Part shown: positions 10,704-21,958 of the stretch, piece after piece
Numbering within the stretch: the first letter of the stretch is position 1
How the letters are laid out: the number at the start of each line of letters is the position of its first letter
DNA from: a virus
Length of the DNA stretch: 37,722 bases
Virus record (IMG/VR): IMGVR_UViG_3300045988_130501
Coordinates: 1-37,722 of that record
Strand: one strand, 5' to 3'
Translations under genes and position numbers: made by a program
The notes under the pieces: model-generated
The model's database searches: none
Seen by the model: the letters and a program-made list of their open reading frames with translations, nothing else
What the model was told of the DNA's origin: nothing

Positions 10704-10779
10704 TGGAGGGCGAAGTGAGATTTGAACTCACGATATGGAAGTTGCAGTTCCACTTCTTTAGCCACTTGAATATTCGCCC
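10704..10779 (-). tRNA. tRNA-Cys (anticodon GCA), CCA encoded
   Basis: Folds by hand into a cloverleaf. Acceptor GGGCGAA/UUCGCCC, anticodon arm UGGAA-CUGCAAC-UUCCA, T arm GUGAG-UUCAAAU-CUCAC. The U73 discriminator and A13-A22/G15-G48 features are typical of bacterial tRNA-Cys. Confidence 0.9.
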
Positions 10780-19143: not shown

Positions 19144-20638
19144 CTAACCTCCAAATCCTGTTTGCAAATTCTTTTGTCTTGCAATTCTTTGCTGCGCCTC
19201 AAACAATGTTCCCTCTTCAACTTCTGCTTTAACTACAAAATTTCCATCAAAAGTTGCATTGCTTGATAATATTTGGCTAACGCTTCCAGCAGTACCACTA
19301 AATGCCATTTTGCCAGTTTCCATATTAACTGCTCCTCGCATTTTTTTGTAAACATCATCGCCAAAATCACTTATTTGTTTATCTATTAAATCATCATCTT
19401 TTTCAAATGCCACACCAACGCCTAAAATTAAATTTTTACCGATTTCATCACGCATAACTTTTGAAGGGCTATGTATTCCAAAAAAAGATTTTATATTATC
19501 TTTAATAGAATTAACAACTTTTTTAGCAGCATTTTTTATTGCACTTCCCATACTGGTTATACCACTTAAAATTCCATTTAAAACATTTTTGCCAAGTTGC
19601 AACCAATTTGTATTTGTTATTGTATTTCTAAATCCATTAAATAATCCTATTATTATTTTAGGAACAGCCATTATTAAATTTGGAATATTATTTATTAAAG
19701 CTTTTGCTAATGCAATCATTAATTTTGGACCTACGCTTGCCAATTTTAAAAGCATTTCTGGACTTAATAATTTTGTTACTAATGCAATTATTAAATCTGG
19801 AATTATTGCAATCAAGTCAGGCAAAGCATCTAATATTCCTTCTGCTAATGCTAACAATAAATCAATACCAGCCATTATTATATCTGGTAAATGTTCTATT
19901 AATGTTGTTAGCATAGTTTTTATACATTGTACAATCGCTGGTATTAAATTGGGAATAGCTTCTGTTATACCTTTTGCTAATTCTAATAATATTGTAATTC
20001 CTGCCTGTAATATAGTTGGTAAATTTTGAGTTATAAAGTTAACCAAACTTAATATTACTTGAATTACAATAGGCATTATTTGTGGTAAATATTGTATTAT
20101 GCCATTTAATAATGATTGTAATATTTGTGTCCCAGTTGTTATCAAAGTAGGCAATGCACTAACTATTGCTTGCATTAAACCATTTATAATATTTTGCCCT
20201 GCTTCCATTATTTCAGGTAAGTGTTCTAATAATATTTCTCCTAATTTTGGTATTAGTTCTCCAATACCTTCAATAGCGATTAAAATTCTGGGTAATAAAT
20301 TGTCAAACATTGCTCCAGCACTTTCAACAAAATTATCAATTAACTTATCAAAGTCAGCATTATCATCAGCAATTCCTGTTACAAGATTATCCCAAGATGC
20401 TTTCATCATATTAGTTGAACCTTCAATAGTTGTTGAAGCTTCTTTAGCAGAAGTGCCCGCAATATCTAAACTCTTTTGCATTACAGAAATAGCATTAACT
20501 ATATTTGCAAAAGATAAATTGCCATCTTCTACCGTTAAATTCAATTCTTCTTGTATATCAGTCATTTGTGAAGCGTCTGTTATTAAACGCTCCATTTCTT
20601 CTTTTGTACCACCATAACCAAGTTTTAAATTATCTAAC
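19144..20638 (-). CDS. Tape measure protein, exon 2
   Basis: The frame stays open upstream of the track ATG: (AT)G TTA GAT AAT TTA AAA CTT GGT TAT GGT GGT ACA AAA GAA GAA ATG GAG gives MLDNLKLGYGGTKEEMERL. It joins exon 1 in frame; 473 + 1495 nt = 656 codons. Confidence 0.85.
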
Positions 20639-21485
20639 CAATTTCTACCCCTAGTTTCCTAGTACTTTAACACTCATTTAAGAGTGGGTTTAGACTATAT
20701 CATTAACTCAAATTTCCAATTCTTTTTATTTCCTTTTTTATAATATTTTCCATAAACAATTTGGCTTTTATCACATTTGAAATGTTTTGCAGTTTCATTT
20801 CTTGAATTAAATATAATTGTTTCACCATTTTTATTGGTAGCAATTATTTTCTTTTTTCTATTTTCAATTCTTGAAGTATAACCATATGCTAAATCATTTT
20901 CACTAGCAGTTACCCATTCAAGATTTTCTACTCTATTATCACCTTTATTACCATTTATATGGTTTACCTGTGGCTTGTTTTCAATATTAGGAATAAATGC
21001 TATTGCTACTAATCTATGTATATATTGTGGAATTGTTTTTCTTCCTAATTGAACTTGTTTATAACCACTTGGCTTTATATAAGGTTTTAATATTCTGCCT
21101 GTTTTATCGTTTCTTACATTCCCTAAATTGCTTATTGAATAATTATTATAATTTTCTATCTTTATAAAAGTTTCCATATATTACCTCCTGTTAAAATTAT
21201 AACATATAAACGAAACTTTTACAAGTTAGACATTGTTAATTTGAGTTAGGATGCACTTCCAATATCGTACTAATAGATATTGTACTTGGTAACGAACCAA
21301 TAGTCGTTTGACCTTCCTATTTTCATAGGTTTGGCACTGGATAACCATACCTTTATGGCTTTAGGTTTCCCCAGTTAGCAAGATTATCTCAATAAGTCAT
21401 TTCCTACTTATATTTTAATCTCACACCCCTAGTAAGGTTCACATCCACTGACTTAATTATTACTAATTAAGCCGACATTAAATTT
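20639..21485 (-). mobile_element. Group I intron (847 nt) carrying an HNH homing endonuclease ORF
   Basis: Exon 1 ends in U (..ACGAU) and can pair with the intron GUCG (P1 with U-G). The intron ends in G (..AAAUUG). The G+C-richer flanks hold hairpins, two of them GAAA-capped: CUUAAUUA/UAAUUAAG, CCUAU-GAAA-AUAGG, CAAUAUC/GAUAUUG and CUAG-GAAA-CUAG. Confidence 0.8.
20695..21177 (-). CDS. Intron-encoded HNH homing endonuclease (NUMOD4 plus HNH_3-like)
   Basis: [11 protein letters not shown]...GYKQVQL...[12 protein letters not shown]...[24 protein letters not shown]; its own GGAGG SD. Confidence 0.85.
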
Positions 21486-21958
21486 ATCGTGTAATTTTGT
21501 TTAGCAAATCCTTGATATGCGTTTTGTATCATCTCCATTGATGTACCCATTTTATTAGCATTATCTGACATATCAATTATCGCTCTGTTAGCATAGTCGG
21601 CTGCTTTATCGGTATCTCCACCTAATGATTGCAACAAACTTGCACTAAATGAAGTAACTGTATTCATATATTCATTCGCACTTATTTGAGCTGTTTTGTA
21701 TGCTTCTGCAGCATATCCTTGCAATTTTTGTGAACTTTCTTTAAATAAAGTGTCTACGCCACCAACTAATTGTTCATATTCTGCATAATTATCAACAGCA
21801 CTTTTTACTAAAGCACTTAGTCCAGTTCCAATTGCTGTTATTGAAGCACCTACTCCAACCGCTACGCCTTTAGCAATTCCACCTATTTTATTTAAACCAC
21901 TTTGGAATCCTTTTGTATCTAATTTGGTATCGTATGTTAACGAACCTGCTATCGCCAT
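21486..21958 (-). CDS. Tape measure protein, exon 1
   Basis: MAIAGSLTYDTKLDTKGFQSGL...MEMIQNAYQGFAKQNYT. The conserved TMP motif QGFAKQNYTMLDNLKLGYGG is completed only after splicing. Confidence 0.85.

Follow-up and report, generated by a model that had tools for sequence, protein, structure and literature searches.

Organization of the interrupted tape-measure gene

The stretch of viral DNA analysed here (the window, that is, the whole 37,722 nt of the IMG/VR virus record IMGVR_UViG_3300045988_130501) carries a tail tape-measure protein (TMP) gene divided by an insert of 847 nt with an open reading frame (ORF) of its own, and results of our analysis indicate that the phage is siphovirus-like and that the insert in its TMP gene is a mobile IA-type group I intron. 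All features of the gene and the intron are located on the minus strand. The upstream ORF of the gene (21467-21958, 163 aa) has the tail QGFAKQNYT followed by INLMSA and a stop codon, and the downstream frame, which ends at 19144, is open 5' of its first ATG at 20595 and reads LDNLKLGYGGTKEEMERL (at length, LDNLKLGYGGTKEEM). Both features had been pointed out in the original prediction, made from the letters of the window, and both are present where it placed them.

Excision of positions 20639-21485 fuses the two ORFs into 1968 nt (473 + 1495) that encode 655 aa and a stop codon. Base 21486 joined to base 20638 gives ACG AU^G UUA (^ marks the junction), a sequence obtainable at the DNA level from one cut only, with exon 1 ending in ...ACGAU and exon 2 beginning with GUUAGA.... 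Exon 1 (21486..21958, 473 nt) comprises codons 1-157 and two further nucleotides, and its last four nucleotides, CGAU (21489-21486), are the exon strand of helix P1; exon 2 (19144..20638, 1495 nt including the stop codon) begins with GUUA, which forms helix P10. The nucleotides across the predicted ligated junction are ...AAUUACACGAU^GUUAGAUAAU..., and the spliced protein reads ...QGFAKQNYT^MLDNLKLGYGG... (longer form, QGFAKQNYTMLDNLKLGYGG).

The search of Pfam-A with the joined protein gave no match at E <= 0.01, after which PHROGs were used to establish its identity. The joined protein gives a continuous match over the junction to phrog_58 (tape measure; residues 16-616, E = 1.7e-83), and one to phrog_6900 (tape measure) over residues 16-188, also with the junction spanned.

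The insertion site is situated in the best-conserved block of the TMP region. Among the top 80 IMG/VR loci encoding the spliced N-terminal region, the motif F[AS]K.N[YF]TMLDNLK[LI]GYGG is unbroken in 77. In ul36.k1t1 and P738 the TMP is uninterrupted and reads QNAYQGFAK(Q/A)NYTMLDNLKLGYGGT, and the sequence of the empty, intron-less site is ...AAYTAYACNATGYTNGAYAAY.... In a blastn comparison with deposited phages many relatives match the window in two pieces that skip the insert, and three, namely Lactococcus phage 38502, Streptococcus phage Str-PAP-1, and prophage Javan271, match straight through it. Since the intron-less homologues fix the junction at the same nucleotide and in frame, they support the interpretation of the locus as an interrupted TMP gene, and the earlier proposal that 21486 is joined to 20638 to give 1968 nt in frame is borne out by them.

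Splice sites and exon sequences

The intron (20639..21485) extends from AAAUUU... to ...AAAUUG, with the terminal G at 20639. Its internal guide sequence, UAAU-GUCG (21473..21480), can pair with both exons: GUCG (21473-21476) with CGAU at the end of exon 1 to form P1, in which a U.G pair marks the splice site, and UAAU with GUUA at the start of exon 2 to form P10. Wobble pairs flank the ligation point on both sides. The U at the end of the 5' exon, its pairing with GUCG, and the terminal G of the intron, all proposed beforehand, are thus found in the window, and a U before the 5' splice site and a G as the last intron base occur in 65/65 loci with both splice sites located, the window included.

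Conservation of these pairings was assessed in an alignment of 29 family members with pairwise identities below 95%, in which NNNN stands for the ORF. The P1 pairs GAU/GUC (U.G, A-U, and G-C) are present in 29/29 sequences, and P10 is paired in 98.3% of cells. Alleles occupied by the intron are fixed for ACG AU^G UUA GA, while empty alleles have ACN AU^G CUN GA and vary at synonymous positions; hence, the exon bases needed for P1 and P10 travel with the intron, either through selection for splicing or through co-conversion.

Structure of the intron RNA

A structure of 97 base pairs was written on the 29-sequence alignment, and all of its pairs are canonical in the window. In the alignment 93.8% of cells are paired, as compared with 79.7% in shuffled controls, none of which (0/500) reaches the observed value, and 33-44% in slid controls. 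Changes on both sides of a pair were found at 54 pairs, in 403 cells, with compensatory changes in P2, P3, P4, P6, P6a, P7.1, P7.2, P8, and P9b. In a mutual-information scan of all columns the assigned partner ranks top, with 100% canonical pairs, for nearly every variable column. The 5' 258 nt of the intron in the window fold with z = -3.9 in RNAfold (0/200 shuffled sequences fold as well), and P1, P2, the long-range P3, P4, P5, P6a, P7.1, and P7.2 are recovered. The column definitions of P5a and outer Pf fit poorly (33% and 76% paired, respectively) at gappy places of the alignment, and these two elements were not relied on.

Downstream of the guide sequence, the P2 hairpin (21451..21472), with the loop GUAA, has compensatory changes in 8/9 pairs. 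The 5' strand of P3, GGAUGUG (21440..21446), pairs with UGCAUCC (21249..21255); the helix is 100% paired with three covarying pairs, and its strands are the top mutual-information partners of each other. The P4-P5-P6 domain (21311..21375), supported by the Rfam consensus and covariation, consists of P4 (ACUGGG/UCCAGU), P5 with a receptor-like CCUAAAG...UAUGG, and P6/P6a with a GAAA loop. It is followed by J6/7 and the 5' strand of P7, CAAACGACUA (21301..21310), and by the hairpins P7.1 and P7.2 (21260..21300), which are 100% paired with seven covarying pairs. The 5' strand of P8, UAACUCAAAUU (21238..21248), and its 3' strand, AAUUUGAGUUA (20704..20714), the latter inside the end of the endonuclease ORF, form a helix in which 8/9 pairs covary. 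J8/7 and the 3' strand of P7 (AUGAUA-UAGUCU, 20692..20703) lie in the second of the Rfam matches described below. The P9 domain (20647..20689), supported by covariation, is composed of P9 (ACCC/GGGU) and, enclosed by it, the hairpins P9a and P9b, the latter with a GAAA loop. The sequences of J6/7, P7, and J8/7 constitute the guanosine-binding site of group I introns; the corresponding strands in the window, CAAACGACUA and GAUAUAGUCU, align to the consensus of RF00028, the Rfam group I intron model, and are invariant in 29/29 sequences, and all invariant core positions are kept in the window.

The two GAAA-capped hairpins noticed earlier are CCUAU-GAAA-AUAGG of P6a and CUAG-GAAA-CUAG of P9b. 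The claimed G+C enrichment of the non-coding parts of the insert is real but modest (32% in the 5' part and 36% in the 3' part, vs. 25% in the ORF and 28% in the window). The P5 sequence CCUAAAG...UAUGG (21345-21365), found as the exact CCUAAG...UAUGG in four relatives (L008, L050, L065, and L071), resembles the 11-nt GAAA-tetraloop receptor, and the GAAA loop of P9b (20651-20662) is invariant in 29/29 aligned sequences. A tertiary contact between L9 and P5 is likely on the basis of these sequences.

RF00028 matches the window at 21212-21478 (19.7 bits) and at 20672-20744 (18.7 bits), with the ORF between the two matches. Among the relatives, the ORF-less L010 reaches 48.6 bits (E = 1.6e-11) with this model, as against 35 bits (E = 7.6e-06) for L001. 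The comparison with Rfam suggested in the original prediction thus gives matches in both halves of the insert, at scores below the threshold, and one close to the threshold in the ORF-less relative. At the gathering threshold, a search of the whole window returned a tRNA alone, and the intron was seen only when E-value thresholds were applied to a short region; the same threshold applied to nine loci with ORF-less copies did not flag the intron at the site filled in the window, although it flagged a second intron 22 nt downstream.

The presence of P7.1 and P7.2 between P7 and the 3' strand of P3 is the hallmark of subgroup IA in the Michel & Westhof classification. In the IA2 introns of T4 td and Twort, the 5' strand of P3 abuts J3/4 and P4 directly. 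Unlike in that layout, about 60 nt of covarying domains (21378..21437) separate the 5' strand of P3 from J3/4 in the intron of the window, namely Pd (21427-21437) and the stem Pe with an inner hairpin Pf (21378-21424), which are supported by covariation, mutual information, and RNAfold. Because of these extra domains we call the intron IA-like and do not assign it to IA2. The loop of Pf, AGGAAAUG, is nearly invariant among the 29 sequences, and P3 and Pe both start with an identical invariant triplet of pairs (G-C, U.G, and G.U). The assignment of P3 by analogy with Rfam and T4 td, in which AAUCUUGC beside J3/4 would pair with a downstream strand, was rejected because covariation links the AAUCUUGC strand to an upstream one, as part of helix Pe, and links GGAUGUG, still further upstream, to the strand between P7.2 and P8. 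A search of the literature on group I introns, with 'P3.1' among the terms, found no published name for the Pd/Pe/Pf arrangement.

The homing endonuclease gene

The P8 loop accommodates a gene of 483 nt (20695..21177) for a protein of 160 aa. As proposed earlier, this protein contains NUMOD4 and HNH_3 domains, both above the Pfam cut-offs (NUMOD4: E = 1.3e-10, 41.8 bits vs. 23.4; HNH_3: E = 7e-14, 51.6 bits vs. 24.8), and the gene has its own Shine-Dalgarno sequence, AGGAGG, 7 nt 5' of the ATG. The protein also matches HNH PHROGs, and its match to I-HmuI (PDB 1U3E; E = 9e-13) covers about 130 aligned residues with the H...N...N motif kept, a 19-residue segment with the catalytic motif being aligned to DHKDGNKDNNLSTNLRWVT of the latter. 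The product belongs to the I-HmuI-type HNH homing endonucleases, and it may be active in homing.

Upstream of the endonuclease gene, in the P8 loop, there is a promoter-like site (21196..21224) of the sequence TTGTAA-17 nt-TATAAT, with TG before the -10 hexamer and 10/12 matches. The element TTGNNN-N16-18-TATAAT is present in 31/49 endonuclease-bearing relatives, and the endonuclease gene probably has its own promoter. The position of the element varies: it lies in the P8 loop just 5' of the ORF in 12 introns, that of the window included, and in 19 (L007, L009, L018, and similar ones) it is part of a long extension of P6, some 130 nt before P8.

The ORF spans the 3' strand of P8 and J8/7, and its stop codon UAG (20697-20695) coincides with the first three bases of the 3' strand of P7. 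Ribosomes completing the ORF would be expected to unfold the catalytic core; thus, translation of the endonuclease and splicing should exclude each other on one RNA molecule. In relatives of the 38502 type the ORF continues through P7 and stops at a UAA directly after it.

Distribution and mobility of the intron family

A search with a 24-nt motif from the J6/7-P7-P7.1 core identified 68 IMG/VR loci and 12 loci in GTDB genomes. In 64 loci besides the window, the insertion is exactly at AAYTAYACGAU^...G^GUUAGAYAA, and with the window included there are 60 distinct intron sequences at this site. The 65 loci fall into three size classes: introns of 313-316 nt without an ORF (n = 11), introns of 340-388 nt with only a remnant of the 3' part of the ORF (n = 5), and introns of 819-905 nt with the HNH ORF (n = 49). 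These classes form the pattern expected of invasion, decay of the endonuclease gene, and its loss. L054 (IMGVR_UViG_3300045988_100786) is nearly identical to the window. Comparison with relatives gives identities of about 91% over the first 230 nt of the intron, 86-97% over its last 70 nt, and only 70-80% in exon sequence more than 60 nt away; the contrast fits horizontal spread among diverged TMP genes, and a stronger constraint on the ribozyme could contribute to it.

The conserved N-terminal TMP block contains three group I intron sites within about 81 nt, and only the middle one is filled in the window. Site A (NKMG^TSME), about 59 nt upstream, is occupied in Str-PAP-1 (L002, ~1475-2510; RF00028, 82.1 bits), and its equivalent in the window (~21545) is empty. 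Site B (NYTM^LDN) is the site filled in the window. Site C (KLG^YGG), 22 nt downstream, is occupied in L021 (8015-8205, 92.3 bits with RF00028), L020 (4721-4984, 51 bits), and Javan271 (L005, ~2645-2960, 43.3 bits), and is empty in the window (~20616). Both Str-PAP-1 and Javan271 thus have a second intron nearby. The 3' end of the Silviavirus terL intron, compared in L086 and L087 (Staphylococcus phages phiRNIID and Romulus), is 95% identical to the last 65 nt of the intron of the window (20639-20703), a segment that comprises the 3' strand of P7, the P9 domain, and the 3' splice site. The common 3' module, associated with a different 5' core in the terL intron, suggests module exchange, in which the P9 domain may have been passed between introns. 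That the intron family represents an undescribed structural variant of IA, and the ~81-nt TMP block a three-site hotspot in which ribozyme modules such as the P9 domain are exchanged, is a tentative idea which we consider rather unlikely to hold.

The host of the phage is probably a low-G+C member of the Bacilli. Long ORFs of the window are all on the minus strand, and its G+C content is 28%; the nearest intron relatives in GTDB are in metagenome-assembled genomes labelled Staphylococcaceae and Bacilli (L075, L077, and L078). The tRNA gene mentioned above is that of tRNA-Cys (GCA), at 10704-10779 on the minus strand; it scores 59.6 bits with RF00005 and is found by ARAGORN as well. A megablast comparison of 24 kb of the window with deposited phages gave no match beyond about 70-90 nt of the intron 3' end.

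Proposed mechanism and alternative explanations

The late transcript would contain exon 1, the intron, and exon 2, and the intron RNA would fold into P1-P10. An external guanosine held in P7 would attack 3' of the U that forms the U.G pair of P1 (exon CGAU, guide GUCG), and the freed exon 1 would then attack 3' of the terminal G (20639), P10 (GUUA/UAAU) keeping exon 2 in position. The ligated mRNA (...ACG AUG UUA...) would be translated into the 655-aa TMP. TMP alleles lacking the intron, whether in a co-infecting phage or in a resident prophage, would be cut or nicked by the endonuclease, and repair off the intron-bearing copy would spread the intron.

Several observations weigh against this interpretation. 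The scores of the window with RF00028 are far under the gathering score of 50 bits, which is because the 483-nt ORF splits the model, and even the ORF-less L010 is 1.4 bits short of that score. P1 is short, with three invariant exon pairs and a fourth one only in the lineage of the window (5/29 sequences), and the coding constraint on the exon leaves it no freedom to covary; P7 and P9 (CCC/GGG) are likewise invariant and uninformative for covariation. The core is atypical owing to the two extra domains between the 5' strand of P3 and J3/4. The number of promoter-like sites in the A+T-rich region (7) does not exceed the chance expectation (8.6), and the splicing chemistry is deduced from sequence features. 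On the other side, four things are observed directly: a junction that is exact and in frame, an RNA structure that is conserved and covaries, the membership of the encoded protein in a known endonuclease family, and the presence/absence polymorphism at one site. The original view of the insert as a group I intron is supported by the junction, the Rfam matches, the covariation, and the I-HmuI-type ORF, and splicing is predicted from them; we estimate the probability that the insert is a splicing-competent mobile group I intron at about 0.92.

It is very improbable that an endonuclease cassette has split the TMP gene permanently and that the products of 163 aa and 483 aa (the latter from the ATG at 20595) cooperate without splicing. 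Both ORFs are intact, with that ATG in frame in the downstream one, the GenBank records of 38502 and Str-PAP-1 give two separate coding sequences for the TMP, and split functional phage genes are cited in PMC10448857 (its reference 8). A permanent split, however, leaves unexplained the covarying group I fold over about 360 nt of non-coding sequence, the ORF-less copies of 314 nt at the identical nucleotide, and the P1/P10 exon bases that are fixed only in occupied alleles. Moreover, no Shine-Dalgarno sequence is obvious at the ATG at 20595, which is 3' of the conserved MLDNLKLGYGGTKEE segment.

Slightly less probable still is a descendant of a group I intron that no longer splices in a defective phage, with the TMP gene effectively a pseudogene. 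The shortness of P1 and the source of the DNA, probably a metagenome-derived contig (the near-identical L054 is also from IMG/VR), could be taken to speak for it. Yet all helices are canonical in the window, the invariant core positions are all retained, both exons are open at full length, and the endonuclease has an undamaged ORF in which the catalytic motif is kept. Nor would a dead intron account for the covarying fold, the ORF-less copies at the same nucleotide, or the fixed P1/P10 bases.

Other intervening elements, to which the interruption of the gene alone would lend itself, are regarded as excluded by sequence: an intein by the stop codon that the exon-1 frame meets six codons into the insert and by the endonuclease having its own ribosome-binding site; a group II intron by the lack of a reverse-transcriptase ORF, of any Rfam group II match even at E <= 1, and of a GUGYG start (the insert begins with AAAUU); and translational bypass by the length of 847 nt, which is, to our knowledge, far beyond any bypass described.

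Comparison with known systems

The intron is an ordinary example of a mobile element that is already established in phage structural genes, TMP genes included, and it leaves the current understanding unchanged. Its recognition restores the true 655-aa protein, the length of which sets the length of the tail, in a family whose TMP genes are routinely mis-annotated as two genes and a free-standing HNH endonuclease, as in 38502 and Str-PAP-1. More than 60 loci at one site, in ORF-less, decayed, and endonuclease-bearing states, are a clean comparative set for the homing cycle, and the family also illustrates intron hotspots and the exchange of modules between introns.

Among the closest known systems are 38502, Str-PAP-1, and Javan271: their introns belong to the same family, interrupt the TMP gene at the very nucleotide used in the window, contain a homologous HNH ORF in P8, and have ribozymes that are 78-83% identical to that of the window. 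Among 50,697 deposited phage records these three are the only carriers of the ribozyme, and the RNA is annotated in none of them: the records give split coding sequences for the TMP and an HNH gene only, with the note 'Phage intron' in that of Javan271. The annotations of 38502 and Str-PAP-1 (L001, KX160204.1, and L002, NC_028666.1) list two TMP coding sequences and a free-standing HNH endonuclease with no intron feature, and they probably represent mis-annotated spliced genes. A search of the literature on Str-PAP-1 gave nothing relevant.

The intron with I-HmuI in the DNA polymerase gene of SPO1, a Firmicutes phage, likewise belongs to group I and codes for a NUMOD4/HNH protein, although in a different host gene. 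I-HmuI is a nicking enzyme. The Silviavirus terL intron (Romulus, Remus, and phiRNIID) shares only its 3' module with the intron of the window; its 5' two-thirds are a different, T4 td-like core, and its host gene encodes a terminase. Introns are mentioned in PMC4299906, PMC6195288, PMC3952083, and PMC6507118 as well, in other genes only.

According to Barth et al. (2023, PMC10448857), homing-endonuclease genes often break TMP genes, and the intron with an HNH-3 endonuclease gene that Vibrio phage ICP1 has in its TMP gene was found by RNA-seq and reverse-transcription PCR to be spliced. The window resembles ICP1 in that an intron with an HNH_3-type endonuclease divides the TMP gene, and differs from it in that ICP1 is an unrelated myovirus of a Gram-negative host for which splicing has been demonstrated, while splicing in the window is predicted.

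In B. cereus-group prophages, IA1 and IA2 group I introns occupy three sites of the TMP gene, as described by Tourasse & Kolsto (2008, PMC2504315). The lineages of these phages and of their hosts differ from those of the window, and a blastn search at the 'distant' sensitivity setting with the 5' part of the ribozyme returned no Bacillus phage record. Nevertheless, the B. cereus introns TMP-IVS1/2/3 share with the intron of the window the host gene, the IA class, the occurrence with or without an endonuclease gene, and the presence of several sites per gene, and they show the same polymorphism of presence and absence between related prophages that is seen at the site filled in the window (PMC2504315).

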